Shown here: in pieces, positions 2,269-25,710 of the stretch
How the letters are laid out: each line of letters begins with the position of its first letter
Numbering within the stretch: the stretch's first letter is position 1
Sequence record: OP079919.1
DNA length: 64,000 nt
From: Klebsiella phage KPN8
Reading direction: 5' to 3' (one strand)
The notes under the pieces: model-generated
What the model saw: only the letters and a program-made list of their open reading frames with translations
Database searches by the model: none
What the model was told of the DNA's origin: nothing
Translations under genes and position numbers: made by a program

Positions 2269-2280
2269 AACGTTGATCTA

Positions 2281-2308
2281 CTCCCTCTCCCTATTACGGG
2301 AGAGGGAG
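2281..2308 (+). terminator. rho-independent terminator hairpin (CTCCCTCTCCC-TATTAC-GGGAGAGGGAG) plus T-rich tail
   Basis: Perfect 11-bp inverted repeat directly after the stop of ORF 1918..2268. Confidence 0.6.
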
Positions 2309-2644
2309 TACTCTTATGAATTTATTTTTAGTTAATTAATGTTAAACCTAGGATATTATAGTATAATTAGCTCTAGCGCTATATATTAGGCCGAAGGCCT
2401 AAAGGGTTAGGGTAAGTCAATTCGTTCGTTTCAGCATCAATCAAGGTATTCGCTACGCTCATACTTTCTTATGCTTACACTCACCCATGCAACCTGGAGA
2501 GAAACCCCGACTGAACAAAGTTGTTTATTCCTTCTCAGGGGAATAAACAGTTCGTCGGCTAAAGACATAGGATGTTTTATGATCAGTAAAGAAATACGAT
2601 AATCTAAACTTATTAGTTCAAACACTGTAATCTAGGAGATAACC

Positions 2645-2761
2645 ATGAATATCATAATGCCATTAAAGCTACTCGGAGGGTTACTTATCCTGGGAGTGGG
2701 TTTTGGATTACTGGTTTATCTCATTGTTAAACTCTCCGTTAAAATGGCGTATAAAAAATGA
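2645..2761 (+). CDS. 38-aa hydrophobic micro-protein (MNIIMPLKLLGGLLILGVGFGLLVYLIVKLSVKMAYKK)
   Basis: Below the ORF-track cut-off. SD TAGGAGAT 5 nt upstream of the ATG. Its stop TGA overlaps the ATG of the downstream gene (ATGA at 2758). Single predicted TM helix. Confidence 0.45.
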   Translation: MNIIMPLKLLGGLLILGVGFGLLVYLIVKLSVKMAYKK

Positions 2762-3225
2762 GTGAAGAAGAGCTGTCATTAGGTTATATTTCGGTTAAAG
2801 TCATTCCCACTCAGGAAGGGATTCTTAAAGATAAGGTGTTGGATGCAGGCTGTCTTCCGTTAGATGAAGGGTCGTACCACGCTACGCTTATTTTTGATAT
2901 TCATCAGGATGGCGTCATTCCCAACGTACCTATGATTCCTGAAAAGATCTTCGAGGGAAAGGTTATCGGAATCAAGGAACTCGGAGAGCGTAAAGGAGAT
3001 ATTATCTCAGCCGTTGTACTCGAACTGGATTCTCCTGAACTGGCAGAAGAACACGATCGGTTAATACAATGTGGGTATGGTCATTCCTATCCGGATTACA
3101 TCCCCCATATTTCGCTCGCTTACAAGGTCACAGAAGAGCAAATGGAAGATCTCAAACGACAGTGTGAGTCGCTTATTGGTAAAACGTTCTACTTATCCGG
3201 AGAAAGCATCGACTGGATAGATTAA
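2758..3225 (+). CDS. 2H-phosphoesterase superfamily protein (LigT/CPDase-like; Acb1-like candidate)
   Basis: 155 aa with two H-x-T/S-x motifs flanked by hydrophobic residues (YHATLIF near residue 51, PHISLAY near residue 117). Spacing is about 66 aa, typical of the 2H fold. Confidence 0.6.
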   Translation: MSEEELSLGYISVKVIPTQEGILKDKVLDAGCLPLDEGSYHATLIFDIHQDGVIPNVPMIPEKIFEGKVIGIKELGERKGDIISAVVLELDSPELAEEHDRLIQCGYGHSYPDYIPHISLAYKVTEEQMEDLKRQCESLIGKTFYLSGESIDWID

Positions 3226-3238
3226 GAGGTAAAGGGGT

Positions 3239-3667
3239 ATGCCTGATAAACTTACTGTATCACTTTTTAAGCTTATAAAAAACCACACTGGGTTAACGTT
3301 AAAGGAAGGCGAATTCTCTTTAACGGGAGAAAGACCCTTTTGGTTCAGAATACCTCCTTTTCCCCTTAACCCTAGTTCAAGAGAGAGATTGAGAGATCTC
3401 TTTCAAGATAACTTTGATGTGACTGTAGTTGATTATGTTGACGATTACCAGATCATATTCAGCCAAATTGAACCAACAACTTCTCGTCGTATAAAACGCG
3501 TCAGGAACATCCTAGATGTGTTAGAAAGAGAGTACGGTAGAAACTGTCTCAGACCAGAAACCGGTAGAATCTTGAGCGGATATTACTCTACCCATAAAGA
3601 CAGAATAGAACAGGAAGAACTTGCTTATAATAAAAAGATTTTAAATGAAGCGTTACGAAGACGTTAA
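3239..3667 (+). CDS. hypothetical protein
   Basis: 142-aa ORF. SD GAGGTAAAGGGG upstream. Confidence 0.5.
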   Translation: MPDKLTVSLFKLIKNHTGLTLKEGEFSLTGERPFWFRIPPFPLNPSSRERLRDLFQDNFDVTVVDYVDDYQIIFSQIEPTTSRRIKRVRNILDVLEREYGRNCLRPETGRILSGYYSTHKDRIEQEELAYNKKILNEALRRR

Positions 3668-3708
3668 TCTTATGCAATATTTTTAATCTTAAAACGTGGG
3701 GTGGGTAA

Positions 3709-4029
3709 ATGACGTACAATGAAGTCGAGAAATATCTGGAAATGGGAGAGGCCGTCTCTAGGCGTAGTTGGAAAGCGAACGAAGCGGTTTATTTAGAGCC
3801 GACGACGTTACTTAATCCAGCGCACTATCCTGAGTGTTTAAAAGCCGCAGGTATTAACTCCCTTTTGAGAGTCGATCGACATTTAGTGCGTGTTACCGCG
3901 AGTAACACTGTTGAGCGTTTTATTCCCAACTTTGTAGAAAGAAACGAAAACGATTGGTACGTTAAAAGTTATACCTTCGAACAAAATAAAGCATTACCAG
4001 AACATAATCAAGCACAAGAAGTCGCATAA
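3709..4029 (+). CDS. DUF2829-like protein (Tad2-like candidate)
   Basis: N-terminal MTYNEVEKYLEMGEAVSRRSWK fits the DUF2829 N-terminal signature (F/Y-x-E-A/V-x-x-x-L-x-x-G-x-x-V-x-R-x-x-W). C-terminal FIPNFVERNENDWYV fits the DUF2829 C-terminal W/F-x-P-S/N-x-x-D-x-x-A/N-x-D-W-x-V signature. Confidence 0.55.
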   Translation: MTYNEVEKYLEMGEAVSRRSWKANEAVYLEPTTLLNPAHYPECLKAAGINSLLRVDRHLVRVTASNTVERFIPNFVERNENDWYVKSYTFEQNKALPEHNQAQEVA

Positions 4030-4034
4030 TAACA

Positions 4035-4045
4035 CCCCCCCCCCC
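4035..4045. repeat. C11 homopolymer tract
   Basis: Eleven consecutive C read directly. Intergenic, between the stop of 3709..4029 and the terminator hairpin. Confidence 0.9.
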
Positions 4046-4060
4046 TACACTTAGATTTTA

Positions 4061-4089
4061 ACCAGGAGAGGCGTAAGCCTCTCCTGGTT
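4061..4089 (+). terminator. rho-independent terminator (ACCAGGAGAGGC-GTAA-GCCTCTCCTGGT) plus TTATTTTA
   Basis: 12-bp perfect inverted repeat followed by a T-run. Confidence 0.65.
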
Positions 4090-4163
4090 TATTTTACATG
4101 TATTCTTTTTTGGATCGATATTATTTATGTGTAAACCTCAATAACTTTTTAGGAATCAACATC

Positions 4164-4379
4164 ATGAACGGTCTTTTTGGAACAGGTTGTTTGCTGTTAG
4201 GTGCTGCAGTGTATTTCTTCCTGAAGTACCTGGAACTGCGTAAAGATTTTAAAGAGAATAAGATTAAAGACAAGGGTCGGGCGTCTGGGTATAAAAATGC
4301 CTATTTCTCTTTAACCATTTGTGTTTTGGGTCTGGGTGTCTTTTTAATGGTTAATGGGACTCTGTTGGAGATCAGATAA
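4164..4379 (+). CDS. small membrane protein (two predicted TM segments)
   Basis: Start chosen at the ATG preceded by the TTTTTAGGAATCAACATCATG motif. This is an in-frame later start within track ORF 4098..4379. Confidence 0.5.
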   Translation: MNGLFGTGCLLLGAAVYFFLKYLELRKDFKENKIKDKGRASGYKNAYFSLTICVLGLGVFLMVNGTLLEIR

Positions 4380-4846
4380 TGGATATCGTTATGCTGACCG
4401 ACGCAGAAACAGTTTTGGATGTCGTCGATGCAGAGGAATACTATCTTCCTACGGGAATTATGCGGCATTGGATACAGATGGCTATCCGAAGAGGGCCTGG
4501 GCATTGTAGGGCGTTTTGGTTTGAAGGCGGGATCTTTGTTTTGACCAAAATACCCTTAACAGGTAATAATACATGGAACGCTTCGATTTGGATTTCTGAA
4601 GATTACAGGCGAAAGGGACTGGCCAAGCGAATAACAGTTTTGGCTTTGGATATGTTCAGACTGGCTAACGCGACTCTACGTTTCCATCCTTGGGATCAGC
4701 GTAGCGTTGCATTCTTTTCTAATTTGGTTAACGAGGGATTGTTGACCGGGAAGAATTTTGGGGATATTGGGTCCAGACGTCTTTTATCGTCTGAACTCCT
4801 TAAAGATCCGGAAACCTTTACATCCCAGCGCGTTGAGCTGGTTTAA
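4379..4846 (+). CDS. probable GNAT-family N-acetyltransferase
   Basis: Motif-A-like YRRKGLAKRITVLAL. ATG overlaps the upstream stop (TAATGG). Confidence 0.4.
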   Translation: MDIVMLTDAETVLDVVDAEEYYLPTGIMRHWIQMAIRRGPGHCRAFWFEGGIFVLTKIPLTGNNTWNASIWISEDYRRKGLAKRITVLALDMFRLANATLRFHPWDQRSVAFFSNLVNEGLLTGKNFGDIGSRRLLSSELLKDPETFTSQRVELV

Positions 4847-8195: not shown

Positions 8196-10076
8196 ATGAC
8201 CACACCAACTCAACTACCGATACCCAGTAGCAATTTGCTGGATTCGAGATTTAACTTTGAGAAGTTAGACCAGATAGTAAACTCAGATGCCGATTTCTAT
8301 TTGGACCGTTTTGGCAAACAACGTCTTACCGTTTTGGGCGCCACCAATCAGCTCATCCAAAGCCTGAAAGATCAAACTGGTGCCAACAATGTAACCTACG
8401 TCAAATCCAAGGTGGATAAAGTACTGTCATCGATAGGGTATTCCCTTGACGTCATTCCAATGAATATCTTTGACAAGGCTTATTTGTGTTCGGGAACTGA
8501 CAACCCAGATCCTAATACTTGGATCTGGACCGCCGCCCTGCAGGGCGTTTTATCGGATATCGCTTCTTATAAGCTTTTTACCCTCAACGGAAATGACTAT
8601 TATACAACTTTCTCCCTACGAATACCTGGAGGGGTTTATCAGATCGACGATCTGGTTAGTTTGGGTAAGGTAGCAGGGACTGGAGGAGGAGCATCCTTTA
8701 GGACCAACATCGTTATCAACGGAGATGGAAAAAGCAGTTCGGTTCTTCGTCTTATAGGTGATGATAAACAATTGTTTAAATTCACAGAAAGCCGTTTAGT
8801 CATGAGGGATATAGGGCTTCAAACTAACGGGGCTCGTAACATAGGGATGGAATTAGGCGATCAAAATAATTGGGTCCCGATGGCCCACTCCCATCTTGAC
8901 AATGTTTCGATTACCGGATTTTGTCGCGGATTGCTAATAAGCCATTGCTTTGACAGCACGTTCGATTCTTTATTCATATCCGAGATAGCCGATACGGGTA
9001 ATGCGGTTATACCCGCTACCGGTATTGAAATTGCGCAGTTTTTAGGAAAAGATTCCTCTAACAATCCAGATAACTCTAACCAACTGACGTTTATTAACTG
9101 TGTAGTTGAGACGGCTAGGACCGATAACGCTATTTTGTTTTACGTCAACGGAATTAGTAAAAGTTATCCCCACCACGCCATCAACTTCTTAGGTGGGCAC
9201 CTGGAAACCCATAGACGGAACACGGTCTGTTATAAATTTAACAACATGGCCCTGTCAACCTTCACAGGAGTGACATTCAGTCAGAACGGCACTGATTCTA
9301 CTAACCCTGTAAACGTTGGGGTAATAACTGACTCCTGGAATATTATCTTTAATGGCGGAAGAACAGTAACCAATAATGCTAAAAACACTTACGATGATAC
9401 TTGGGATAAATTGATAACCGTAGCGGGATCTAGCATGGGGATCACGTACATGAATCATCATTTTATTACCCCATACCAGACGTATTCTTCGTATAACCGT
9501 AATGCCAACACCGTGTTCAATTTTACCGGGGCGACCGCGGGAATAAACGCCATCGATGCCGATCGCTGTAGATTGAACGACTTCACGTTCAAGCCGTTCA
9601 CCAAATCTATAGAAATAACCAGAATGGATTTGATTACTCAGCGTTTCAGGATATCCGTAAACACTTCTGGTAGTCTGGTTTTCGCGTACTCTAATGATGT
9701 TACTGGCGCCGCCGCTATGACGGATTTGGTAACCATCACCAATACAGGGAATGCGACTTTTCTTGGGTCCGTTACGGCAACTAACGTAACCGGGACGTCC
9801 GATGAGAGGTTAAAAACAGAAATAGGAGAAGTTGATCAAGTTTTAATTGATGTTGTTAAAAGTCTACGGCCTAAGAAGTATCGACTGAAAAACGACCCCC
9901 AAAACAAAATTAGAGTGGGATTCATCGCCCAAGACCTAATAGAACTTATGGATAAAGCTGGATTGGATTTCAAGAAATACAGTATTATCGCAGAGTTTAA
10001 TATTCCTGGGGATGATTCAGAAAACACGTATTATTCCTTGGACTATGATGAAATAATGTTGTTAAGATCCTTGTAG
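8196..10076 (+). CDS. tail spike/fibre protein 1 with conserved N-terminal anchor and C-terminal intramolecular-chaperone (S74-like) domain
   Basis: Its N-terminus MTTPTQLPIPSSNLLDSRFNFEKLDQIVNSDADFYLDRFGKQRLT is shared with eight other genes in this window. The C-terminus DERLKTEIGEVDQVLIDVV...GFIAQDLIEL...YSLDYDEIMLL matches the auto-cleaving chaperone domain known from endosialidase-type tail fibres. Confidence 0.8.
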   Translation: MTTPTQLPIPSSNLLDSRFNFEKLDQIVNSDADFYLDRFGKQRLTVLGATNQLIQSLKDQTGANNVTYVKSKVDKVLSSIGYSLDVIPMNIFDKAYLCSGTDNPDPNTWIWTAALQGVLSDIASYKLFTLNGNDYYTTFSLRIPGGVYQIDDLVSLGKVAGTGGGASFRTNIVINGDGKSSSVLRLIGDDKQLFKFTESRLVMRDIGLQTNGARNIGMELGDQNNWVPMAHSHLDNVSITGFCRGLLISHCFDSTFDSLFISEIADTGNAVIPATGIEIAQFLGKDSSNNPDNSNQLTFINCVVETARTDNAILFYVNGISKSYPHHAINFLGGHLETHRRNTVCYKFNNMALSTFTGVTFSQNGTDSTNPVNVGVITDSWNIIFNGGRTVTNNAKNTYDDTWDKLITVAGSSMGITYMNHHFITPYQTYSSYNRNANTVFNFTGATAGINAIDADRCRLNDFTFKPFTKSIEITRMDLITQRFRISVNTSGSLVFAYSNDVTGAAAMTDLVTITNTGNATFLGSVTATNVTGTSDERLKTEIGEVDQVLIDVVKSLRPKKYRLKNDPQNKIRVGFIAQDLIELMDKAGLDFKKYSIIAEFNIPGDDSENTYYSLDYDEIMLLRSL

Positions 10077-10080
10077 TTTG

Positions 10081-10160
10081 GGAAATTGGGGGCGTATTTT
10101 TAACTAACGTACCATAACGTCCCCCCCCCACTCCAATTTAGTCAAACAAAGGGTGTTATG
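10081..10160 (+). repeat. conserved ~80-bp upstream element, copy A, containing a C9 tract (10121..10129) inside an inverted repeat AATTGGGGG / CCCCCAATT
   Basis: Aligns along its length with 22505..22580. Both copies end in ...AGTCAAA(C/T)AAAGGGT...ATGATGAC, the start of a tail-spike gene. Confidence 0.8.
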
Positions 10161-12299
10161 ATGACGACTCCAACTAAGAACGACATTCCAAGCAATAATT
10201 TGTTGGATGCTCGTTTTAACTTTGAAAAGCTCGATCAGATTGTTAATAGCGACGCGAACTATTACCTTGATCGATTTGGTAAACAACGACTCACTTCGGC
10301 CGGATTGGAAGATTTAGCCAGACGATTATCTGAAGATTATGAATCCACCCTATCTAATCAGGATGGGTATAAGAAAATGGGGATGGTGTCTGATTTTACT
10401 ACTCTCAGAACTATCGCCCCAACAATGGAAGGTCAACGCATTCTGCTCAGGTCGGTTGACGCTGGTTCGAATAATGGATCGGGAGAGTTTATAGGACATT
10501 TAGGGAGCAATGGGGTTGACGACGGGGTTAATGTCGCGGTGGGATCCAACTTCTATTGGGAGAGGCTTTCGACTGATTTTGTTAAATCTTCTTCTATAGG
10601 TGATTACACTCGGATTAACTCCTTTATTTCAGCCGGAAATAAGAAGATCACTGTCGATGCCGATCTCAGCGGGTGGCTTAACGTCAAAAGTAACACCACG
10701 ATAACTTTTAACCCATTGTGTCGGCTGATACCTGATACCGATGACAAAGTCGGCATAAGTATTAGAGGAGCCGCCCCAACCTCCTATGTTAATCTAGCTA
10801 CTGATGCATTAGGGATAGATGGCTCAATTACCACCACTAATGACGTTTTTAACATTGGTGATTGGCTGGAAATTAGATCCAACAAGGTTCTTCCCGGCGC
10901 GAATTTTTATCAGGTTAAGCAATCTGTTTTACGCAAAGTGCTTCGTAAAACACAAAATGGAAATGGAACTTGGACATACCGTCTCCACAGTAGTTTAGGT
11001 TATAACTTTAACGTCAGCGACGGTGCTTCCGCTGGGGTTGCGACAGTATTGGAAAATATTGTTATCGATGGGGCTAACTTAAATAAAGACAATTTCACCA
11101 ATATCTTCACCATAGGGATAAACTGTTATTACGTTTATAACCTCACTATAAAAAATATCAACCTATTCGGAACAAAAGTAAAGGATTCTGCCTCAGACAC
11201 TCCAGGAAGATCCGGAATAAAACTGTATAATTGCGTTAACGTTAGAATCGATAATGTGAACGCCTCTTATATAGGGTGGTATGGTGTAGAGGTTATGGGA
11301 TGCAGTGAAAACGTAGATGTAAATCGTTTATACGGTGTGGATTGTCGACATACCGTTTCCATGAACTGGATCGAATCTGGCGACCTTTATGGTGGGCCTA
11401 TGTGGGTTTCGGTAAGGAACTCAGCAAGTCACGCTGCAAGATTAAGTGGGTTTGACACTCATGATCTAGGAAAGGGGATCGCATTTATTAATTGCCAGAG
11501 TTTCGATTCTGGTGATGATGGATTCCAAGTAAGGGCGATGGACACCGTTCTAATCGATTGCCATGCTGAAGGATCGACACTTGATGGCTTCGGCGGCGCT
11601 ACTGGCGCAAAGAACAGCAAATTAGTAAACTGTTCTTTCAACTACAACGTCAGATACGGAATTAATTTAGGTTATGAAGGCGGTATTGTTATCGACTGTG
11701 ACGTCGATAATAACGGTTACATGGGGATTTGTACCATCGGCGGACTCATTCAAGGAGGGTCGGTCACCAATAATTATCCGGCTGCTATCGATATAGGCGC
11801 CGGATTTAATGCCGCCCAAACCGATCTCAAAATCGATGGTGTTAGAATGCCCTCTTCGACCGCCCAGACAAAAATTTTGAGTTTTGCTGGTGACGCGGTA
11901 GCCGCTAACAACAAACCTGAGTTGGTTAGAATGGAAAATTGTTACGTTCCTGGTTACGGAAGAGATTGGGTCAGACTGGTATCGTTCACCGTCCAACCTT
12001 TACCCCCGGTGCTTAATAATAATCTACTTACTTCCAGCTTAACCTCCCCTGGAAAAATAAGCGGGCAAGTCCAATTATCTGCAGGGACAGCCACGGTGAC
12101 AACCACAGAGGTTTTCTCACAACTTGGTAGCGGTGCAAATGTTTTAAAATACTCATCGCAGATTAAGTTGAAACCTATCGCTCGTTCTGCCAATATAGGC
12201 GCTCATTATGTTTCAGCAATCAACAACGGGACGTCCTTTGTAATCAATTCAACCAATTCCTCGGATGGCTCGACCATTTATTGGGAAATAACACTTTAA
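10158..12299 (+). CDS. tail spike protein 2 (right-handed beta-helix depolymerase-like)
   Basis: Conserved N-terminus MMTTPTKNDIPSNNLLDARFNFEKLDQIVNSDANYYLDRFGKQRLT. Repetitive N/G/V-rich beta-helix-like segments (NVRIDNVNASYIGWYGVEVMGCSENVDVN). Confidence 0.75.
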   Translation: MMTTPTKNDIPSNNLLDARFNFEKLDQIVNSDANYYLDRFGKQRLTSAGLEDLARRLSEDYESTLSNQDGYKKMGMVSDFTTLRTIAPTMEGQRILLRSVDAGSNNGSGEFIGHLGSNGVDDGVNVAVGSNFYWERLSTDFVKSSSIGDYTRINSFISAGNKKITVDADLSGWLNVKSNTTITFNPLCRLIPDTDDKVGISIRGAAPTSYVNLATDALGIDGSITTTNDVFNIGDWLEIRSNKVLPGANFYQVKQSVLRKVLRKTQNGNGTWTYRLHSSLGYNFNVSDGASAGVATVLENIVIDGANLNKDNFTNIFTIGINCYYVYNLTIKNINLFGTKVKDSASDTPGRSGIKLYNCVNVRIDNVNASYIGWYGVEVMGCSENVDVNRLYGVDCRHTVSMNWIESGDLYGGPMWVSVRNSASHAARLSGFDTHDLGKGIAFINCQSFDSGDDGFQVRAMDTVLIDCHAEGSTLDGFGGATGAKNSKLVNCSFNYNVRYGINLGYEGGIVIDCDVDNNGYMGICTIGGLIQGGSVTNNYPAAIDIGAGFNAAQTDLKIDGVRMPSSTAQTKILSFAGDAVAANNKPELVRMENCYVPGYGRDWVRLVSFTVQPLPPVLNNNLLTSSLTSPGKISGQVQLSAGTATVTTTEVFSQLGSGANVLKYSSQIKLKPIARSANIGAHYVSAINNGTSFVINSTNSSDGSTIYWEITL

Positions 12300-12357
12300 C
12301 CTTTGCTGGATGGTGATTGGTCGACGCCGGTCTAAAACTAATTTGTTAGGGTCATTT

Positions 12358-12391
12358 AAAATCCAACCGGTCTTAAGACCGGTTGGATTTT
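12358..12391 (+). terminator. rho-independent terminator (AAAATCCAACCGGTCTTAAGACCGGTTGGATTTT)
   Basis: Perfect palindrome with a T-run, immediately downstream of the stop of tail spike 2. Confidence 0.7.
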
Positions 12392-12433
12392 ATGCTTACC
12401 GATATTTCAACCTTCCTGACCCGAGGAATAGCA

Positions 12434-14665
12434 ATGACTTTACCAACGCAAAAACCTATTCCGAGTTCATCCATAACTGATCAATTATTTAATGCCGAAA
12501 AGATAGATCAGGTTGTTAACTCGGATGAACTAGAATATTCCGATCGTTTCGGAAAGAAACGATTCACCTTTTCAGGATTATACAACGTTGTACAGAATTG
12601 GATCAGCAGTTTGGGGTCAAGTTCCGGGGCGTCAGCTGTAGGTCTTAGCCAGGGCGGTACGGTTCAGGCCGGTCTCTACAACGTTGTTAATGTCGAACAA
12701 TTCGCTTATCTCAATACTTCAGATGATGATTGGGGTCCGGCTTTTAGAGGGGCCAGGGATAAAGCAATCGAGATATCTGCTCCGGTCGTTACTTTTAAAG
12801 GTCAGTACAAAATAAAAGTAAGCTCCGGTCCGACCACTCACACCCTGCCTTTCGACGACGGAACTTACGATACAAGAAGAACTGGCGAAGTTTTACTTTC
12901 TCCAGAAACCTTGAATACAATGCCTGTAGGATTGGAATGGCCTTCCGGACTCTCCCTTAAATCAGACGGGATCGGAAATAACTCAATTACTTTCGATTGG
13001 GATAATGCCACTGTTGGGCTGTCTCAGGGGATTGGTATCTGCATCAGGGTCAGAAACTGGGACGGAACTTATCTTGCTAAGGCCGGGTCAGTTAATCGCA
13101 TGAATAGCGATATAGCCAATGTGGAGTTTGATGGGTTTAGCGTAAATAATGCCTTTATCGGAATACTGGCCGACGGTATCGTGGGATCAGTCAGTTGGGG
13201 CAGTCTCCAGTTTAAGAAATGTTTCTTACCTATGACTTGGCAGGGCGCCGACAGATGCACGATTAAGAAACTGAGATTTACAGATTGTCCTACCGGATTC
13301 TCGGTAGGTGGATGGTGGCTGACCCGTAACGACATATCAGGATCCAATACCGGATTGGGGGTCCCGCCTTACATTGCAGGAACCGACGTGTACTGCATCG
13401 GATGGATGGACTTCGTTAAAATTGAATCTCTGGAGTACTCTAATAGTACTTCGTTTGACAATTCCCCGTTGTTTGCCGCGGTAGATACTTTCTTCGACAC
13501 CTATTTCTACAAAAGCGCGAACAGCGCTAGAACTGCTAGTGGTGGTCGATGCACTAATACAGGCCCTAACCTAACTAGCGCGAGTACGTTAGCGGCAGAT
13601 TCTCCGTTCTTAGGTATCGCCGGGCGCGCTCACTCACAAATGGGGCGTTACCACCGAAATCACATCTTGAATGAAATTATTTCTCTCAAGACGTGGGGAT
13701 GTTTCAGGGCATCAGTCCTTACCACTGCTAATGGAAACTCGGAGCTCAACGTCCCGGGGTGCATAGTGGGTACCGCGTACATCGAACAGGCCTGTAAGGT
13801 CACGGTTGGCGGTGACGCCACGGTGGGGGGAAGTAATGACTTCGTTACATCAGGTAAAGATGTTTGGAAAGGGACAAAAACTTATTCTAAGTATTATGCT
13901 GGTGAAGGATCCGTAATCGTTAAAGATGGATGGTCTGTTAATAGTTTGGGGTTGTTCCCGTCAGCGCGGACTGTTGCAAGAAATGATAATGGGTATAATA
14001 ACAGACTAAGAAGAACAATTGTCGACGATGGCACAGGGAAACCGGTCATACTCGAACAGCTTTCTGAAACGGTCTATGCGACCCCTCCTCAGAAATTTAT
14101 TCCTAACGCCGTGGGTTCAGTAGACGACAAATATTACTGGGTTCAACTAGAAAAGAACGTCTCTTCAAAGGCTACTATTTATTCTGGTGTTCCAACGACG
14201 GCGGCGCAAACACCTATAACCTCTCCGGCCATTAAAGTAATAATGGAACGTTTAGGTAACAGAGTTAAATTAAAAATTAATTTGGATGCGTCAAATTACG
14301 CAGCCGGCGGCAGTAATCCGGTGGTAATCGGATTTACTGGGGTCTATAAACCTATTCTTACTGCAAGTCCCGATTACGCCCTTGGGGCGTACGGTCCGGT
14401 GAGACCCATAATGGTCAGCACCAAAACATTTACAGTTACCGATTCTACTTCAGTGAGTCGGACGTTTAGGATCGAGCCGGTCGCGCATCAAGCTGGGGTA
14501 TTCACTGATGGCGGCGGGGTTAATAATTACTACTTTGTTTTGCTCACCCAGCATCATACTTCTGACACTAATAGACTGTTGTGGTCGGATTTCACCGGTT
14601 CGTTATGTCAGATAGAAATAGAATATGATACGAATGACGCTATCACTTCATCCAGCGTATTTTAA
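12434..14665 (+). CDS. tail spike protein 3
   Basis: Start set at MTLPTQKPIPSS, which restores the conserved N-terminus. The track start at 12383 lies inside the terminator hairpin. SD GAGGAATAGCA upstream. Confidence 0.75.
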   Translation: MTLPTQKPIPSSSITDQLFNAEKIDQVVNSDELEYSDRFGKKRFTFSGLYNVVQNWISSLGSSSGASAVGLSQGGTVQAGLYNVVNVEQFAYLNTSDDDWGPAFRGARDKAIEISAPVVTFKGQYKIKVSSGPTTHTLPFDDGTYDTRRTGEVLLSPETLNTMPVGLEWPSGLSLKSDGIGNNSITFDWDNATVGLSQGIGICIRVRNWDGTYLAKAGSVNRMNSDIANVEFDGFSVNNAFIGILADGIVGSVSWGSLQFKKCFLPMTWQGADRCTIKKLRFTDCPTGFSVGGWWLTRNDISGSNTGLGVPPYIAGTDVYCIGWMDFVKIESLEYSNSTSFDNSPLFAAVDTFFDTYFYKSANSARTASGGRCTNTGPNLTSASTLAADSPFLGIAGRAHSQMGRYHRNHILNEIISLKTWGCFRASVLTTANGNSELNVPGCIVGTAYIEQACKVTVGGDATVGGSNDFVTSGKDVWKGTKTYSKYYAGEGSVIVKDGWSVNSLGLFPSARTVARNDNGYNNRLRRTIVDDGTGKPVILEQLSETVYATPPQKFIPNAVGSVDDKYYWVQLEKNVSSKATIYSGVPTTAAQTPITSPAIKVIMERLGNRVKLKINLDASNYAAGGSNPVVIGFTGVYKPILTASPDYALGAYGPVRPIMVSTKTFTVTDSTSVSRTFRIEPVAHQAGVFTDGGGVNNYYFVLLTQHHTSDTNRLLWSDFTGSLCQIEIEYDTNDAITSSSVF

Positions 14666-14680
14666 CATTTAAGGTGTGAT

Positions 14681-16441
14681 ATGACGCTCCCAACTCAAAA
14701 CGCTGTTCCTAGTTCAGCTAAGAACGACCAGCTCTTTAATGCTGAAAAAATAGATCAGGTCGTCAATAGTGACGACCTCCAGTACACAGATCGCTTCGGT
14801 AAGAAGCGATTTACTTTCTCTGGTTTATACAACATAATCCAAACATGGGTTGCGAGTTTAAGTGATACCACCGGAGCAGGATCGGTCGGGATCGCGCAAG
14901 GGGGGTACATCCAGCAATCTCTTTTGGAAGTGACACCGATGATGCAAGGTGCCGTAGGAGACGGCGTCGCTGATGACTCACAGGCGTTGATCAAAACATT
15001 TACTACTGCTAAAACACTTGGATTGCGGGTTAAAATAGATCGCGCTTATCTTTGCTCCTCAGCGCTTGCCGTTTCTGGACCGCTATACTTAGAAGGAATC
15101 AACCCGGAAACAGGAAAAATTATTTTTACAAATAAAGATGACTTCGGTCTTTACATTACTCAGATCAAATCCACAGACTTCATAACCATAAAAAATATCA
15201 GCATTACGGCCGGAGCTAAAATCGTTAATCCAAAGGGCCTCCTAACCATCGACGGAAGCTCTCAATTAACAACTGATCAGTCGGCAGGCAAATACCTCTT
15301 AGCAGATAGGACAATCCGCCGCGGGCTGTTGGATAATGTTAATCTCGATTGCCTTAGTGGGAACTACGCGGTTAACTACCTTAACATTATTTCATGGATG
15401 AATTATTCCGTTAGAAACATATTGATAAGAGGGTCAAGGGACAACCTGTCGGCGCTCACTAATGGAATACTTTTAAACGGCGATGGTTTCCCCGTCGACA
15501 TCCACATGACCGACCTTTTGATGTATAACCTAGGTCGGGCTATTAACTCCGTGGATTACGTGGAAGGACTCCACATTTCAGAGTTTGAATTTGTAAACGT
15601 TTTAAGGGGGATTAGCGCCGATTACGACTCAAATTATTCCAAACTCAGCTCATCGGTATGCGGATGTTACGGACCTATGATTCACACGGGTCATGTAAAC
15701 CTGGGAACGATGACTGGCGCTGACTCATGCATTTACATTAAAAATACTGTCACTCCTCGTATCAAAGATCTTTTGCTTTTCAATAGCGCCGGCGCTGCCG
15801 TCACAAACAGTTACGGGGTTTACGTTTACGGATCAACCAGCGGTGGGGAAATATCCAGCGTTTATGTTGCGGGTGGTGGTGCCGCCAACACGAAGACCAA
15901 TAATTATTCAATTAGAGTATATGGCGCCAATGGATTAAACATCAAGGACTGTACCGGAAGCTATGCGGGAGCCGTAGTGTATCTTGAAGGGGTTTCCACT
16001 AACTGTGTCATATCAGGAAATAGTGGTATCAGCACCACTAACGTCGTTTATATTTTCAGTGCCAATAACGCCAACAATAAAATAACTTCTGATAACTCGG
16101 GAATAGGAATCACGGATAAGGTGGTCGGCGGAGATCCTAGCGGGTCTTATGTGGAACCTCTAATCTGGCAGAGGAAGTACACACTGAATTTAGCCGCGGC
16201 CAAAGATGCCGGGACGTCTTTCACTTTTAACGTCCCGATTCCCGGGGGAAATTTTGGTGTTGCTCCAGATGCCGCTTTCGCGACATTACCCTCCAATCTT
16301 ATCGGACAATTTTCATATAACCCTTCGGCCAGTTCAGCAACAAGTCTGAATGTAACCATTTATTTTATCTCGGCCGCAGCCATAGGGAGTTACGATATTT
16401 TAATTTCGGCAGCTGGTTTTGGCGTAAGCAGAACGCAATAA
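14681..16441 (+). CDS. tail spike protein 4 (pectate-lyase-3-like beta-helix)
   Basis: Conserved N-terminus MTLPTQNAVPSS...DRFGKKRFTFSGL, paralogous to spike 3. Motif QGAVGDGVADDSQALIKTF resembles the GxxGDGxTDD signature of pectate-lyase-superfamily phage depolymerases. Confidence 0.75.
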   Translation: MTLPTQNAVPSSAKNDQLFNAEKIDQVVNSDDLQYTDRFGKKRFTFSGLYNIIQTWVASLSDTTGAGSVGIAQGGYIQQSLLEVTPMMQGAVGDGVADDSQALIKTFTTAKTLGLRVKIDRAYLCSSALAVSGPLYLEGINPETGKIIFTNKDDFGLYITQIKSTDFITIKNISITAGAKIVNPKGLLTIDGSSQLTTDQSAGKYLLADRTIRRGLLDNVNLDCLSGNYAVNYLNIISWMNYSVRNILIRGSRDNLSALTNGILLNGDGFPVDIHMTDLLMYNLGRAINSVDYVEGLHISEFEFVNVLRGISADYDSNYSKLSSSVCGCYGPMIHTGHVNLGTMTGADSCIYIKNTVTPRIKDLLLFNSAGAAVTNSYGVYVYGSTSGGEISSVYVAGGGAANTKTNNYSIRVYGANGLNIKDCTGSYAGAVVYLEGVSTNCVISGNSGISTTNVVYIFSANNANNKITSDNSGIGITDKVVGGDPSGSYVEPLIWQRKYTLNLAAAKDAGTSFTFNVPIPGGNFGVAPDAAFATLPSNLIGQFSYNPSASSATSLNVTIYFISAAAIGSYDILISAAGFGVSRTQ

Positions 16442-16554
16442 TCTTTTAGTATTTAATAGATTGAGGGCGTGTAATCGATAATAACTGAGGGATGATGATT
16501 AAATTTATATTACGTCGACTTCATCCCAGATTGATCGTCATTTAGGAGTTTTCA

Positions 16555-18696
16555 ATGACACAGCCAACTCAGAATCCTATTCCCAGTGGGAATATACTGG
16601 ATCAGATTTTTAACGCAGAAAAGATAGATGAAGTTGTCAACAGTGGCAGCGAGCAATATACGGATAGGCTGGGAGTTAAAAGATTCACTATAGCCGGACT
16701 CACTGCTTTAGTCAGAAATTTGATCAATTCGATATCGGGGAATACTGGCGGAGGGAACGTAGGATTAGCTAATGATGAAATGCTTCAGTCTTATTTGGAT
16801 AAGTACGAAAATGCGTCATGCTCGATCTTCAAGTTCCTTTCCCCAGAAGAAGCTAGAAATGCGAATTTAAAACTTCTCGTCAATATAGACCAGGCAGTTG
16901 CCTCCGCAGCCGATGCTGGCGTGAGTTCCATTAAACTCCCACCCGGACACTTTGAGTTTAATACCACCACAATGCTTTATAATGTTTGTATTGTGGGTAG
17001 TAATGAATCAGAAGCCCCAGATCTTCAACTCGAAGCGACAGATGGCTCTTCAGGGAAGTTATCACTGAATACCAAAGGTACCGTATTGCACCTTACTGGT
17101 AATTCCGCAGCAAATGGCATCACCTTTAATACGAATACCCCGTCGTCTTCTGTAGTTGGGGTAAGCCGTTGTTCTGTTTATTATCCCGATCAAGACTGGG
17201 CCAACTGGTCAGTGGGAGGGACAGATATAGATGGCGTGACTTATTATCAGCCGACGGTGTACCCGGCGGCGTTTATAATAAACGGTGGAATGCGGGCTTT
17301 CTTCGATAAAGTCTTTTTTATCAACGCATATCAATGGATAGAAATAAGAGACACCCAAATACCGATGATCGGTAAGATAGCGGGAACCCTCATCAATCGT
17401 GGTGTTCAGATCACACGTATGGGAGCGGGAGGATACACGGATACGGTTAACTCCTATCCTTTCTGGACATGGGCTTGTGGGTTTAGGGGTAACTCCATGC
17501 GAGCCAACCTGTACCAAACCTTTAAGGGAATTTGTTATGAGGTAGGTAACGATGACGGAACGACGCGAACTGTAGAACAGATGCTGATTAATCGTCTTAA
17601 CGTTATCGGGTGTGCGGACGGACTCATTTGTGGTGGAAAGGGCGTGACGCTCAATAGCGCTAAATTCGATAACTGTATGCGAGCCATCACGGTTAACAGT
17701 TTGGATAATTCTGCTTACCACAGTTTCAGCAATGTCTGGGCGTCGTGTTATTACAATAACAATTATGTGTTTAAACAGAGAACTGATGGGAGCGTTTACG
17801 TTTTCTCTACGAATAGTTCGACCCCTGTAAATATTAATAATTTTAATGTTGTAAGATCCGACGGTATAGGGATAAACATGCCGTATGCCTCTGGGTCAAA
17901 CATCAGTAATGTGGTCATTCAACAATTGGGTTGGAAAGGGTTTGTTTTGGGTTCTGCCGGAAGAAGCACAGACGTGTTGAATGTTAACACGTGTAATGTG
18001 AACTTTTATACCGGGGATTCGGCTTTAACCCAGATAGGTTATGAGATTGGCGATTTTGTAAGATGCTCGATTAAAGGACTGCAGTACAAAGGTGGGAGTA
18101 ACGTAACGCCTTACGTCATGACAGGGACATTGAATCCGTACGAATCCGGCAAAGAAATAGATTTAAGTTCTCTCGACGGCCCGCTTTATAAAGGGGTAAG
18201 CCAGTCTATCGTTTCTGTTATTCGTGGGAGAATACGCCGTCTTGTGGGGGTAACAGCAAGTTCTACAGACAGTGTTCTCGTGACATCGTTATCGGGGACT
18301 AATACCGGCGGTACAGCTTTAAACTGCGGCGTGGGTGTAAGAAACACGGTATCAACCGGAAATGGCCATGGGGTGTTAGTACTTTATTCGTCTAAGGCGG
18401 GAGAGCTCGTTGAGACAGCAGAAGTTTTTAACGACGGAGCCGTTTTAGGGGTCAGGCCGCGATCAACAACTGCCGTGCTAGGAGATACGAGTAACCCTTG
18501 GAATTCGGCGGATATAAAAACCATCAGGGCGACCTCGTCGATTACACTTAACGGCAATCCAGTTGGGGTTAAAGTTAGTGTGCCGGCGTCAGCTACCGCC
18601 ACTGGAGTGGTAGGTCAGTGGGCGGCCGATACGACCTATATCTATATTTGTGTGGCCACCAATACTTGGGTGAGGGCCAGTTTAGCAACCTGGTAA
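16555..18696 (+). CDS. tail spike protein 5
   Basis: Conserved N-terminus MTQPTQNPIPSGNILDQIFNAEKIDEVVNS...DRLGVKRFT. TTTAGGAG SD motif upstream. Confidence 0.75.
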   Translation: MTQPTQNPIPSGNILDQIFNAEKIDEVVNSGSEQYTDRLGVKRFTIAGLTALVRNLINSISGNTGGGNVGLANDEMLQSYLDKYENASCSIFKFLSPEEARNANLKLLVNIDQAVASAADAGVSSIKLPPGHFEFNTTTMLYNVCIVGSNESEAPDLQLEATDGSSGKLSLNTKGTVLHLTGNSAANGITFNTNTPSSSVVGVSRCSVYYPDQDWANWSVGGTDIDGVTYYQPTVYPAAFIINGGMRAFFDKVFFINAYQWIEIRDTQIPMIGKIAGTLINRGVQITRMGAGGYTDTVNSYPFWTWACGFRGNSMRANLYQTFKGICYEVGNDDGTTRTVEQMLINRLNVIGCADGLICGGKGVTLNSAKFDNCMRAITVNSLDNSAYHSFSNVWASCYYNNNYVFKQRTDGSVYVFSTNSSTPVNINNFNVVRSDGIGINMPYASGSNISNVVIQQLGWKGFVLGSAGRSTDVLNVNTCNVNFYTGDSALTQIGYEIGDFVRCSIKGLQYKGGSNVTPYVMTGTLNPYESGKEIDLSSLDGPLYKGVSQSIVSVIRGRIRRLVGVTASSTDSVLVTSLSGTNTGGTALNCGVGVRNTVSTGNGHGVLVLYSSKAGELVETAEVFNDGAVLGVRPRSTTAVLGDTSNPWNSADIKTIRATSSITLNGNPVGVKVSVPASATATGVVGQWAADTTYIYICVATNTWVRASLATW

Positions 18697-18703
18697 TAAT
18701 TAT

Positions 18704-18735
18704 TACTCCTTCTCCGGTTAACCGGAGAAGGAGTA
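18704..18735 (+). terminator. hairpin TACTCCTTCTCCGGTT-AACCGGAGAAGGAGTA
   Basis: 16-bp perfect palindrome after the stop of spike 5. A second hairpin, AGACTTGCGCAAGTCT, follows at about 18772. Confidence 0.55.
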
Positions 18736-18821
18736 ATAGATACGTCCGATTTTATGCTGATCTAAATTCAGTAGACTTGCGCAAGTCTTTTATACTACAT
18801 TCTTTTTAAAGGAGTAACCTC

Positions 18822-20711
18822 GTGGCTACAACTCCAACTACGGGTGATATCCCCAGCAATGCTGCGGTGGACCTTAAGTTTAACTCGGAACAATTCGACC
18901 GAGTAATGAATTCTGACGATCTGACTTATACGGATCGTTTTGGTAAAAAACGTATTACAATGAAAGGGGTTCAGGAACTCGCTAATGGCTTCCAGGATAC
19001 TTTCACTAATCTGTTGGGTTCTCCCGACGGGTTCAAATTAATCGGCGGGGTTAAATCTTTTGATACCCTGAGATCGACACCAGTGAGAACCGAAGGCCAA
19101 CGTATTTTCCTCAAATCCTATTATGAAAACGGAGTTACTGGGAGTGGGATTTTTATTGGGCGCATCGGAACAAAATTAGATGACGGTGGGACAGTAGCTC
19201 AGGGAATTGGATATTACTGGGAACGTATTCCTTGGTCGAGTCTTACTGCGGAAGACTTCGGAGCAAAAGGTGACGGCGTTACTGATGATAGCTCGGCCAT
19301 ACTAGCTGCCGTGGCTTTTTCCTCAAGCACCGGAACATCGATGGGTCTTTTATCTGGCAAAACCTATGTCTTTAAAGGATCTGTTGGATTATCGATCGAC
19401 CTGGGTAAATTTTCTTTCGGTTGTTTTAACGGGAGAAGTAAACTTGATTTTTCTGCTTTCACCGGATCCAACGCAATAAATGTATTTAGTTCCCCGGGCT
19501 ACCCTACCTCCATGTACAGAAACACAACTAACAGACTGATAGGTTTGGAGGTTTACGGTGGGTTAGTTGCTGGCGTAAACGGCTTGCTGCTGGGGCACGA
19601 CGATTATTCCTACAATGGTCAAAGTGTGATAGAACACTGCGCCTTTGTCAGGTTCGATAATGTGATTCTTTGCGGCAAGAACACATGGCGAACTAAGTTT
19701 ATTTGTTGTACAGTCTCCACCGGAATAACCTCGGTCTTTAATGCGCCTGCGGGATTAGAGAATTCAGGAGAATCGGTGACGTTCTCCGGATCGCAAATTA
19801 GCGATTCAAACGGAGCCCCTATTATTGTTAACTGTGCTAGTTTTTCCCTGGGGCTTGTCGGGGGGACTTCAGTACTAAATACACGCATCCTCATTAACGC
19901 CCAAGGCGCGACGGTACTGATGGATGACATGGGTAACGAAGAAAACCCGGGTCAGCAGGGCTTTTATGTTTACGCTGATGTTAAAGGCGCGGGAGCCCGA
20001 CTAATTATCACCAGTTCTACGATAGTTTGCAATAACCCATCAGCTCAAACTAAATCTTTGTTTAATGTCGATCAAAACGCATACATCATCCTTAACAATG
20101 TAAAAATGCAAGGTAATGGTTATAAATTCGAAGTAGATCCGACAGGCGACCAGGTTGGGAAATGGATTAGCGGGAAAGGTAAAGTCTTGGTATCTGGGGT
20201 TACGGGCGATCCGTTATCAGGGGCAGGAAATATCCCAATCCACGAATCGTTGTCACCGATCAGGAACTGGAACTTTGATTCGGGAGATCTGAGCGATTGG
20301 ACCATCAATAATTCAGGATCCGCATCCCAAACCGGAGTGGTCGGTACGGCGTATAAAAAAGTAGGGGATTACGGCCTTCGTCTTACTTCAGTGGCCGGCC
20401 TTAATGTTTTTGCTACCTCTTCTTTCCCTGTGAGACCTGGCGGGTATTATAAAACAAGTTTCTGGGCCAAAGTAGTTACCGCCAACTCAGGTGCGACTAG
20501 TGCCGGCAACCTCACCCTGTCGTTCAAAACAGCTTCCGGAGTACAAATAATCTCACAAACCGCCAATCTTCCTTCCGCGGTCACTGATTGGGCTGTTTAT
20601 GGCGCATTCATTTGTGGGGACGTCCCTGTAGGGGCTGTCACTGCTGAGATAAGTCTGAGAGCGTCTTCCGGAGCTGTGGTTGATTTCGACGCGGTTCTTT
20701 TTAATTTTTAA
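18822..20711 (+). CDS. tail spike protein 6 (pectate-lyase-3-like depolymerase with C-terminal carbohydrate-binding-like domain)
   Basis: GTG start. Conserved N-terminus MATTPTTGDIPSNAAVDLKFNSEQFDRVMNSDDLTYTDRFGKKRIT. Motif AEDFGAKGDGVTDDSSAILAAV. C-terminal about 150 aa (NWNFDSGDLSDWT...GYYKTSFWAKV) resembles CBM4/9-type domains. Confidence 0.75.
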   Translation: MATTPTTGDIPSNAAVDLKFNSEQFDRVMNSDDLTYTDRFGKKRITMKGVQELANGFQDTFTNLLGSPDGFKLIGGVKSFDTLRSTPVRTEGQRIFLKSYYENGVTGSGIFIGRIGTKLDDGGTVAQGIGYYWERIPWSSLTAEDFGAKGDGVTDDSSAILAAVAFSSSTGTSMGLLSGKTYVFKGSVGLSIDLGKFSFGCFNGRSKLDFSAFTGSNAINVFSSPGYPTSMYRNTTNRLIGLEVYGGLVAGVNGLLLGHDDYSYNGQSVIEHCAFVRFDNVILCGKNTWRTKFICCTVSTGITSVFNAPAGLENSGESVTFSGSQISDSNGAPIIVNCASFSLGLVGGTSVLNTRILINAQGATVLMDDMGNEENPGQQGFYVYADVKGAGARLIITSSTIVCNNPSAQTKSLFNVDQNAYIILNNVKMQGNGYKFEVDPTGDQVGKWISGKGKVLVSGVTGDPLSGAGNIPIHESLSPIRNWNFDSGDLSDWTINNSGSASQTGVVGTAYKKVGDYGLRLTSVAGLNVFATSSFPVRPGGYYKTSFWAKVVTANSGATSAGNLTLSFKTASGVQIISQTANLPSAVTDWAVYGAFICGDVPVGAVTAEISLRASSGAVVDFDAVLFNF

Positions 20712-20764
20712 TGGTGAGCTAGGGGAGGGGGCGCCCTCCTCCCTTATTTATGAGGTTTCTAAAA

Positions 20765-22480: not shown

Positions 22481-22504
22481 GTAGCTAAATTCCTTATTAG
22501 TAGT

Positions 22505-22580
22505 GGAATTGGGGTGTTTTTAACCAACTTACCATTGTCTTTTGCCTCCACCCCAATTCAGTCAAATAAAGGGTTCAATG
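22505..22580 (+). repeat. conserved upstream element, copy B (no homopolymer; CCTCCACCCCAATT)
   Basis: Aligns with 10081..10160. Confidence 0.8.
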
Positions 22581-25242: not shown

Positions 25243-25710
25243 ATGAACCTCATGTACGATAATTACTACGGAAAAGAAATAATTGGATTGGGTTTAGAGG
25301 GAGAAGTCATCACAATGTTAAATTTGGCGATGACTGACATTAATCACTTCGCTAAGAAAAGTATCGCTAAAGACATCAACCCCTATCCGTTCAATCTGGA
25401 AGATTTTAAACACAACCGTTTAAACGAACACTACTTCCTCGTTTTTGATGGGAAGAAAATAGCGTCGATTCTATCCGTCGTTTACGCTTTAGAGCATCAT
25501 CTCAAAATAGCTAAAATCTTTAACGTTTATACGTTACCGGAGTATCGCCATAAAGGGCTTGCTAAACGCAACCTAATCGCCGCTATCGTGTCGGCAAGAT
25601 CAAATGGGTACATTGTGCAGTTAAACGTTTACAGGTCTAATAAAGCCGCTCAGAGGCTTTACAAGAGCCTTAAATTTAAACCCGTCGAATACACTATGCA
25701 GCTCGGTTAA
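25243..25710 (+). CDS. GNAT-family N-acetyltransferase
   Basis: Motif A LPEYRHKGLAKRNLIAAI and downstream YxxLGF-like KSLKFKPVEY. Confidence 0.6.
   Translation: MNLMYDNYYGKEIIGLGLEGEVITMLNLAMTDINHFAKKSIAKDINPYPFNLEDFKHNRLNEHYFLVFDGKKIASILSVVYALEHHLKIAKIFNVYTLPEYRHKGLAKRNLIAAIVSARSNGYIVQLNVYRSNKAAQRLYKSLKFKPVEYTMQLG

Follow-up and report, generated by a model that had tools for sequence, protein, structure and literature searches.

Klebsiella phage KPN8 (OP079919.1) carries a short gene, KPN8_62, for which an initial annotation made from the sequence proposed a second DUF2829/Tad2-like protein, set 1 kb downstream of an Acb1-like gene and specialised for a signal of its own. Is KPN8_62 a genuine Tad2, and would it capture the same immune signal as its better known relatives? 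The window analysed here is a 64,000-nt stretch of the phage, and all coordinates are window positions. KPN8_62 (copy 2 of the initial annotation) is a genuine but highly divergent member of the Tad2-like/DUF2829 family, and on balance we lean towards a homo-oligomeric immune-signal sponge of altered specificity. The gene and its parts are as follows.

3709..4029 (+): divergent Tad2-like coding sequence KPN8_62, ATG to TAA, 106 amino acids plus stop; from the open reading frame (ORF) list and the sequence
3709..3972 (+): Tad2-like domain, residues 1-88; from AlphaFold2 (predicted local distance difference test, pLDDT, ~95), Foldseek and hhalign (columns 1-87)
3973..4026 (+): C-terminal tail, residues 89-106; low pLDDT, probably disordered

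Family membership and predicted fold

The ORF at 3709..4029 (+) has exactly the translation that was first given for it (MTYNEVEKYLEMGEAVSRRSWK ... FIPNFVERNENDWYV), and its product is 100% identical to the NCBI entry 'hypothetical protein KPN8_62'. The proposed family also held. Pfam PF11195 (Tad2-like, formerly DUF2829) matched residues 1-85 over profile positions 1-72 of 73, with 29.9 bits against a cut-off of 25 (E = 8.5e-7), far from what chance would give, and no profile search assigned the protein to an unrelated family. Among the other members of its clade, P0005 and P0006 scored 38.5 and 36.0 bits, respectively, and the orthologues P0003 and P0004 were at or below the cut-off. In PHROGs the protein matched phrog_1048, a family of unknown function there.

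A phmmer search of the PDB with the KPN8_62 sequence alone found no chain. A profile built from seven clade sequences retrieved, by hmmsearch against the PDB, HgmTad2/AcrIIA7 (8KBI, 2.9e-5) and SptTad2 (8WJD, 4.4e-4) and, more weakly, ModTad2 (8V3E/9EIB, ~2e-3) and SPO1 Tad2 (8SME, 4.7e-3), the chains of these four proteins spanning E 3e-5 to 6e-3. Compared by hhalign with 30 canonical Tad2s, the same profile aligned over 87 columns with a probability of 97.4% (E = 1.1e-11). AlphaFold2 modelling from the single sequence gave a pLDDT of 43 and was unusable, and a 47-sequence alignment was used instead; the resulting model has a mean pLDDT of 86.5, with ~95 over residues 1-88. Foldseek returned 24 PDB matches to this model with E <= 1e-4, all of them Tad2 (E 2e-7 to 7e-5, template modelling (TM) score 0.55-0.85), and the next PDB match had an E of 0.44. 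In BFVD, named matches with E <= 0.001 were all Tad2-like or DUF2829 proteins. The family assignment is thus supported by the Pfam hidden Markov model (HMM), the profile matches to Tad2 chains, the profile-profile comparison and the predicted fold, which are only partly independent of each other.

Behind the domain, block-mean pLDDT drops to 47 (residues 91-100) and 38 (residues 101-106), with residues 96-106 all below 50, and the tail is probably disordered. Canonical Tad2s stop a few residues past the DW motif, without a tail of this type; Ala/Glu-rich tails are also present in the clade members P0006 and P0007.

Residues of the canonical ligand pocket

The pocket for glyco-cyclic ADP-ribose (gcADPR) is formed by W25, N26, W73, S76, T78 and D79 in SPO1 Tad2 (10.1101/2023.05.01.538930) and by W21, N22, G23, W87, L88, S90, T92 and D93 in HgmTad2 (10.1101/2023.11.15.567273). 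In its W-N-G loop the asparagine and glycine bind the gcADPR diphosphate and the tryptophan stacks on the ligand, and N22 and D93 are key polar contacts to phosphates/hydroxyls in both solved complexes (10.1101/2023.11.15.567273, 10.1101/2023.05.01.538930). W-N-G and W..S..D are invariant in the alignment of 30 canonical Tad2s. The corresponding segments of KPN8_62 are these.

3769..3777 (+): W-K-A, codons 21-23, against the canonical W-N-G loop (beta1-beta2); from three alignments
3919..3939 (+): F-I-P-N-F-V-E, codons 71-77, against the canonical W-L-A-S-Q-T-D pocket motif; from alignments

Pocket mapping was identical in the three alignments, whose methods differ and whose sequences are partly common. 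Where gcADPR-binding Tad2s have W-N-G, KPN8_62 has W21-K22-A23, and the W, S, T and D of the canonical W-x-x-S-x-T-D motif before helix alpha3 are all replaced. The changes at the polar contacts to gcADPR are N22K, G23A, S to N74, T to V76 and D to E77. The chemical skeleton of the pocket is kept in W21, the aromatic F71 and the acidic E77. Clade-wide, a skeleton of aromatic, hydroxyl-or-amide and acidic residues is kept and the diphosphate-binding Asn is lost, as the following pocket residues illustrate.

Copy 1 (the other Tad2-like gene of KPN8): W-N-G; W..S.G-D
KPN8_62: W21-K22-A23; F71..N74.V76-E77
P0005: W-L-P; Y..T.E-D
P0006: W-G-G; W..T.I-D
P0007: I-K-G; Y..T.S-D

Judged by these alignments, the KPN8-Miami group is the most derived of the clade. 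The KPN8 allele has extra arginines at positions 18-19.

Two Tad2 lineages in one phage

29339..29614 (+): copy 1, canonical Tad2-like gene, 91 amino acids; PF11195, 52.7 bits

Copy 1 lies ~25 kb from KPN8_62 and was located with an HMM of three canonical Tad2 sequences; it was missed both by phmmer of KPN8_62 against all window ORFs and by a regular expression for the R..W motif. The two genes share a phage and a Pfam family. Copy 1 has W-N-G and W-V-P-S-Q-G-D in its pocket and scores 52.7 bits, as against 29.9 bits for KPN8_62. BLASTP between the two proteins gave nothing significant (best E = 0.22) and their identity in multiple alignments is ~13-15%, in full agreement with the initial description of KPN8_62 as strongly diverged from copy 1. 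By phmmer, copy 1 matched SptTad2 (4.4e-7) and SPO1 Tad2 (7.3e-5). Its homologues are found in 111 phage records, with ~35-47% identity among the matches listed, and include those of E. coli, Salmonella, Pseudomonas and other phages; inside the Miamivirus group its identity is 97-100%. KPN8_62 is confined to the Miamivirus group (6 of 50,697 records, 91.5-92.5% identity). Both genes are kept in all five related phages.

By sequence comparison, copy 1 and KPN8_62 belong to separate lineages of the Tad2 family. A recent duplication was considered and rejected on the lack of detectable pairwise similarity and on the different nearest relatives. The label 'second copy' is misleading in that they are of very different lineages, not recent paralogues. 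A possible specialisation of the two genes for different signals, as first suggested, fits the pocket comparison (copy 1 canonical, KPN8_62 replaced at five of seven positions) and the ligand differences published for Tad2 homologues (10.1101/2025.08.24.671296).

Selection and allelic variation

The window DNA is 91-97% identical to that of the ~250-kb jumbo phages phiKp_32, Miami (genus Miamivirus), BUCTxx100, VB_ZK_P1 and YC1. The reading frame of KPN8_62 is intact in every relative. Ratios of non-synonymous to synonymous substitution rates (dN/dS), calculated by the Nei-Gojobori method, were as follows.

KPN8_62, among the five relatives: 0-0.06 (dS 0.05-0.11)
KPN8_62, KPN8 versus relatives: 0.17-0.24
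Copy 1: 0-0.10
Acb1-like gene: 0.02-0.27; most pairs 0.02-0.08, with 0.27 for KPN8-Miami from 4 changes only
142-aa gene between the Acb1-like gene and KPN8_62: 0.03-0.17

KPN8_62 is under purifying selection, and its dN/dS of 0-0.24 argues that the gene is functional and not decaying. Nucleotide divergence between KPN8 and Miami is ~0.9% over 2701-3700 and ~5.8% over 3701-4100, and dS between them is 0.02-0.03 in the neighbouring genes and 0.20 in KPN8_62. This jump in divergence and dS places a boundary of recombination or mosaicism right where KPN8_62 begins (~3700).

Six close alleles were compared, and 26 of the domain's 88 positions vary between them. Half of these (13/26) fall in the pocket-forming segments (residues 16-24 and 70-81; 21 residues; hypergeometric P = 4e-4), which were chosen from the published pocket description, so that the allelic test is partly post hoc; two fall in a 19-residue insertion motif (P = 0.03). 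The segment of codons 71-77 is the most variable. Such a concentration of allelic variation in the pocket fits either diversifying pressure, as on an arms-race surface, or relaxed constraint.

Comparison with characterised Tad2 proteins

SPO1 Tad2 (Gp34.65; 8SME/8SMF/8SMG, 8WJE), the founding anti-Thoeris sponge, is a small single-domain phage protein like KPN8_62 and has the fold predicted for it (Foldseek E 2e-6, TMt 0.70-0.77). Helix alpha1, the positions of G13 and W21 and the D-W motif at the C terminus are common to both proteins, and the beta2-beta3 insertion is similarly short in both. The two differ in their ~20% identity, in the extra 18-residue tail of KPN8_62 and in the pocket replacements N26 to K22, W73 to F71, S76 to N74, T78 to V76 and D79 to E77. 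HgmTad2/AcrIIA7 (8KBI-8KBM, 8WJC), a dual sponge of gcADPR and cyclic dinucleotides, is both the top profile match of KPN8_62 (E 2.9e-5) and the top fold match of its model (Foldseek E 1.9e-7). Its insertion domain has 41 residues (32-72) against ~22 in KPN8_62, and its gcADPR contacts W21/N22/G23 and W87/S90/T92/D93 correspond to W/K/A and F/N/V/E.

ModTad2 (9EIB, 8V3E) binds His-ADPR (histidine-ADP-ribose) in the canonical pocket and cUMP (cyclic uridine monophosphate) in a second pocket, and also shares the predicted fold (Foldseek E 6.5e-7, TMt 0.76-0.85). It is a precedent both for the re-tuning of Tad2 pockets to other ligands and for a second pocket in a Tad2 with a short insertion. ModTad2 retains W-N-G and W-T-P-S-V-S-D, whereas KPN8_62 departs much further from the canonical pocket. 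A similarly non-canonical pocket, W-S-K / W-K-E-T-M-I-E, occurs in Tad2_79, an IMG/VR metagenomic homologue (10.1101/2025.08.24.671296), in which, as in KPN8_62, the T is replaced by an aliphatic residue and the D by E. The two proteins have no detectable pairwise similarity (phmmer E 1.8), and Tad2_79 has neither the EP..LLNP motif nor the tail, and W stands in place of F71.

Known ligands of Tad2 homologues are 3'cADPR (3' cyclic ADP-ribose), His-ADPR, N7-cADPR, cyclic dinucleotides and cUMP/cCMP (10.1101/2025.08.24.671296). Table S2 of the same study lists 84 tested sponges, among which the motif strings of copy 1 and KPN8_62 are absent; its column layout is somewhat ambiguous, and all activities given here are our reading of it. 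On that reading, Tad2_79 inhibits type I and type IV Thoeris and the non-canonical Tad2_72 (W-P-K) inhibits type I Thoeris (10.1101/2025.08.24.671296). Together with the inactive homologues considered below, these activities imply that pocket divergence neither abolishes nor guarantees sponge activity. In the literature we found no paper on KPN8_62, on KPN8 anti-defence or on a phage with two Tad2 lineages.

A putative sponge of altered specificity

By analogy with the solved Tad2 structures, the KPN8_62 protein would assemble into a homotetramer, and its inter-protomer pockets would sequester a nucleotide-derived host immune second messenger; the defence effector would then never be activated. 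The Acb1-like gene in the same transcription unit points to an anti-signalling context, and both Tad2-like genes and the Acb1-like enzyme together may cover several Klebsiella signalling defences. Because the polar contacts that read gcADPR are replaced, the ligand is probably not, or not only, the 3'cADPR expected for copy 1, and most likely it differs from that of copy 1.

Several points weigh against this proposal. Of the seven positions without variation in canonical Tad2s, five are changed in KPN8_62, and three other non-canonical homologues, Tad2_69, Tad2_80 and Tad2_81, inhibit 0/7 systems assayed, as read from Table S2 (10.1101/2025.08.24.671296). Published sponge pockets are described as positively charged, and the net charge of the KPN8_62 protein is negative by manual count. 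The alignment given to AlphaFold2 included canonical Tad2s, which makes the model partly dependent on the family assignment. Finally, the variation in the pocket segments could equally reflect relaxed constraint on a disused pocket.

A bolder version, to which we give only a slim chance, is that the remodelled pocket sequesters a messenger without a described phage sponge, or an undescribed molecule, in Enterobacteriaceae. If so, the protein could serve as bait to purify and identify the molecule, as ModTad2 did for His-ADPR, and the clustering of allelic variation in the pocket would come from a continuing arms race for that signal. Few phage counter-defences are as widespread as Tad2 sponges, which recent work shows to have a broad range of ligands that sequence predicts poorly. 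KPN8_62 is a member with a largely rewritten canonical pocket, maintained under purifying selection in Klebsiella jumbo phages of therapeutic relevance that also have a canonical Tad2 and an Acb1-like enzyme. This makes it an inexpensive, clearly defined candidate in the search for new sponge specificities, and one that could help explain how these phages handle many Klebsiella signalling defences; with copy 1 it offers a natural comparison for work on the re-tuning of Tad2 pockets. Should it bind 3'cADPR as other Tad2s do, it would be an ordinary member of the family. Functional plasticity is already on record for Tad2, and the present results do not reveal a new mechanism.

Alternative explanations

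3796..3852 (+): clade-specific motif EPTTLLNPAHYPECLKAAG, codons 30-48, in the beta2-alpha2 insertion; from the clade alignment

Other readings are taken in falling order of probability. Foremost among them, but doubtful, is that KPN8_62 is a sponge that uses a second pocket at the V-shaped dimer interface while its canonical pocket degenerates. In Tad2 the beta2-alpha2 insertion region forms this dimer interface and the second pocket, whose ligands are cyclic dinucleotides in HgmTad2 (10.1101/2023.11.15.567273) and cUMP in MoTad2 (10.1101/2025.08.24.671296). The insertion is the most conserved stretch of the clade (E30-P31-x-x-L-L-N36-P-x-H-Y...K45; 2 of 19 sites vary among close alleles), with E30, P31 and N36 invariant throughout the clade within EP-x-T-L-L-N-P-x-H-Y, and no part of KPN8_62 varies more than the segments of the canonical pocket. 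The motif moreover aligns to the R31-P32...L36...K46 region of the cyclic-dinucleotide pocket of HgmTad2, and the equivalents of P32, L36 and K46 are kept as P31, L35 and K45. Other features weigh against this reading. The HgmTad2 contacts R31, S47, F70 and N85, whose mutation abolishes cyclic-dinucleotide binding (10.1101/2023.11.15.567273), are replaced in KPN8_62 by E30, A46, V55 and R70. The cavity needs an insertion of 35-41 residues between beta2 and beta5 (10.1101/2023.11.15.567273); that of KPN8_62 spans ~22 residues (31-52), with an alignment gap of ~16-24 columns relative to HgmTad2-like sequences, and is not of the long HgmTad2/SptTad2 type. In SPO1 Tad2 the insertion is a dimer interface, whose V-shaped site is occluded by F44 stacking, and its conservation in the clade may be purely structural. 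At the residue level, KPN8_62 lies outside the definitions of both the gcADPR-binding and the cyclic-dinucleotide-binding Tad2 types.

It is also unlikely that KPN8_62 has the Tad2 fold but is no small-molecule sponge, acting for example as an inhibitor of a host protein or as an anti-CRISPR, as was once claimed for AcrIIA7. The top PDB sequence matches are indeed deposited as 'Inhibitor of Type II CRISPR-Cas system' and AcrIIA7, about half of the tested Tad2 homologues inhibit 0/7 signalling systems as read from Table S2, and the clade has its additional C-terminal tail. Yet the anti-Cas9 activity of AcrIIA7 was irreproducible, and the protein was shown to be a sponge of gcADPR and cyclic dinucleotides (10.1101/2023.11.15.567273). 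The literature examined holds no demonstrated non-sponge mechanism for any DUF2829 protein, and the Acb1-like operon partner points to interference with immune signals.

We rate as improbable, too, that KPN8_62 is an ordinary 3'cADPR anti-Thoeris sponge, redundant with copy 1, whose changes are neutral drift in a tolerant pocket. Such tolerance would agree with the chemically kept skeleton (W21, F71, E77) and with the type I Thoeris inhibition read for the non-canonical Tad2_72 and Tad2_79, but both key polar contacts, N22 and D93, are replaced, and both Tad2-like genes are under purifying selection in all five related phages.

That KPN8_62 is a decaying, non-functional Tad2 remnant is very improbable: the low Pfam score, the clade members P0003 and P0004 at or below the cut-off and the lost canonical contact residues would agree with it, but the frame is intact in all relatives, dN/dS is 0-0.24 with appreciable dS, synteny, the ribosome-binding-site-like stretch and the terminator are conserved, and the predicted fold is confident. 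On dN/dS, a pseudogene was rejected.

Transcription unit and neighbouring genes

The putative sponge gene KPN8_62 is the last cistron of a compact, hairpin-bracketed four-gene unit, in the order 38-aa hydrophobic ORF, Acb1-like gene, 142-aa gene and KPN8_62, followed by a terminator. The synteny of this unit is kept in each of the five sequenced relatives and also in those known from metagenomes. Its elements, other than KPN8_62 itself, are the following.

2279..2310 (+): upstream hairpin, 13-bp stem; fold energy -26.4 kcal/mol, z = -5.9
2645..2761 (+): 38-aa strongly hydrophobic ORF MNIIMPLKLLGGLLILGVGFGLLVYLIVKLSVKMAYKK, first gene of the unit; from the sequence
2758..3225 (+): Acb1-like 2H phosphoesterase gene; PF23474 Acb1, E = 6.4e-13, 49.1 bits against a cut-off of 27
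3239..3667 (+): 142-aa gene between the Acb1-like gene and KPN8_62; syntenic in all relatives
3696..3705 (+): G-rich Shine-Dalgarno-like stretch GTGGGGTGGG, ending 3 nt 5' of the ATG of KPN8_62; from the sequence
4060..4089 (+): intrinsic terminator, 13-bp stem with 8 G-C pairs, then UUUAUUUU; from the terminator scan

The hairpin at 2279..2310 closes the preceding unit; the Miami record has an annotated terminator at the same relative position, just past the preceding gene. A ribosome-binding site is annotated in that record at the place equivalent to the Shine-Dalgarno-like stretch, and the terminator at 4060..4089 (fold energy -26.8 kcal/mol, z = -7.5) is likewise an annotated terminator in phage Miami. 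An Rfam search of the window gave no match. Between the KPN8_62 stop and the terminator lies a C homopolymer (4035..4045), with C11 in KPN8 and VB_ZK_P1, C12 in Miami and C10 in phiKp_32 and BUCTxx100; these length differences could be real slippage or sequencing noise.

The Acb1-like gene of the initial annotation is well founded, its Pfam score lying above the cut-off. The distance of 1 kb given for it holds from start to start (951 bp); the gap from its stop to the start of KPN8_62 is 484 bp and contains the 142-aa gene. The encoded protein matches the Acb1 PDB chains 7T26 and 9Q2G and has both H-x-T/S catalytic motifs in its translation, H41-A-T43 and H117-I-S119, the latter aligned to PHITLSY of chain 7T26. 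The gene is labelled 'RNA ligase' in Miami, as is its PHROGs family, phrog_755; given the Pfam Acb1 match, the H-x-T/S motifs and the Acb1 PDB matches, we regard the product as an Acb1-like 2H phosphoesterase and not an RNA ligase. The Miami record starts this gene (L001 4118..4507) 78 nt further in, with 390 nt as against 468 nt.

The 142-aa gene is under purifying selection, and its product has no match in Pfam, NCBIfam or PDB sequences and a weak PHROGs match to phrog_22859. We consider it a candidate anti-defence gene because of its location inside the anti-signalling operon. The stop of the 38-aa ORF overlaps the Acb1-like start (ATGA), and the ORF is annotated as a 117-nt coding sequence in Miami, BUCTxx100, VB_ZK_P1 and YC1. 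NCBIfam gave nothing meaningful for copy 1, KPN8_62, the Acb1-like gene or the 142-aa gene.

Just 5' of the Acb1-like operon, phiKp_32 has an IS200/IS605-family TnpB gene (L002 1..261), at the site of which KPN8 has a 330-bp non-coding stretch with hairpins (window ~2310-2640). Directly past the anti-signalling unit, a GNAT-family acetyltransferase gene at 4379..4846 (+) has a weak match to PF00583 (E 2.8e-4); a second GNAT-family acetyltransferase gene at 25243..25710 (+) matches clearly (E 8.5e-12). A run at 8196..24311 (+) comprises eight large ORFs (576-760 aa). Past it, an 856-aa ORF on the opposite strand (26655..29225, -) corresponds to a gene whose product the Miami record lists as a putative tail fibre with similarity to phage K64-1. 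Together, the run and this ORF look like a multi-receptor-binding-protein array. Copy 1 opens the plus-strand block immediately past 26655..29225 (-).

Distribution of the clade

The clade of KPN8_62 is very rare, with about ten sequences in the public data searched. An exhaustive HMMER scan of 1.84 billion representative proteins with the KPN8_62 sequence gave four matches, one at 85% identity and three at 27-38%; a word-indexed profile search of the representatives with the clade alone gave nothing further, and a motif scan of IMG/VR found no clade member. In 241 million metagenome records, the clade was present at two loci, on a 252,837-bp Miamivirus-like contig and on the contig of P0007. 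The distant clade members lie on short phage-like contigs, one of them adjoining a dihydrofolate reductase (DHFR) gene.

One of the five related phages, BUCTxx100 (OR529409.1), was deposited as a Stenotrophomonas maltophilia phage and is ~94% identical here to the Klebsiella/Raoultella Miamivirus-type phages, which implies either an unusually broad host range or a questionable host label. Among the HgmTad2-like relatives, many Bacteroides-type proteins (P0008, P0009, P0062 and others; 150-209 aa) have, N-terminal to the full Tad2 domain, an additional short half-domain that is DUF2829-like, for example MKFEEALKAMKAGSKAKLPSWGGYW...DEW, which suggests tandem Tad2-like repeats inside one polypeptide.

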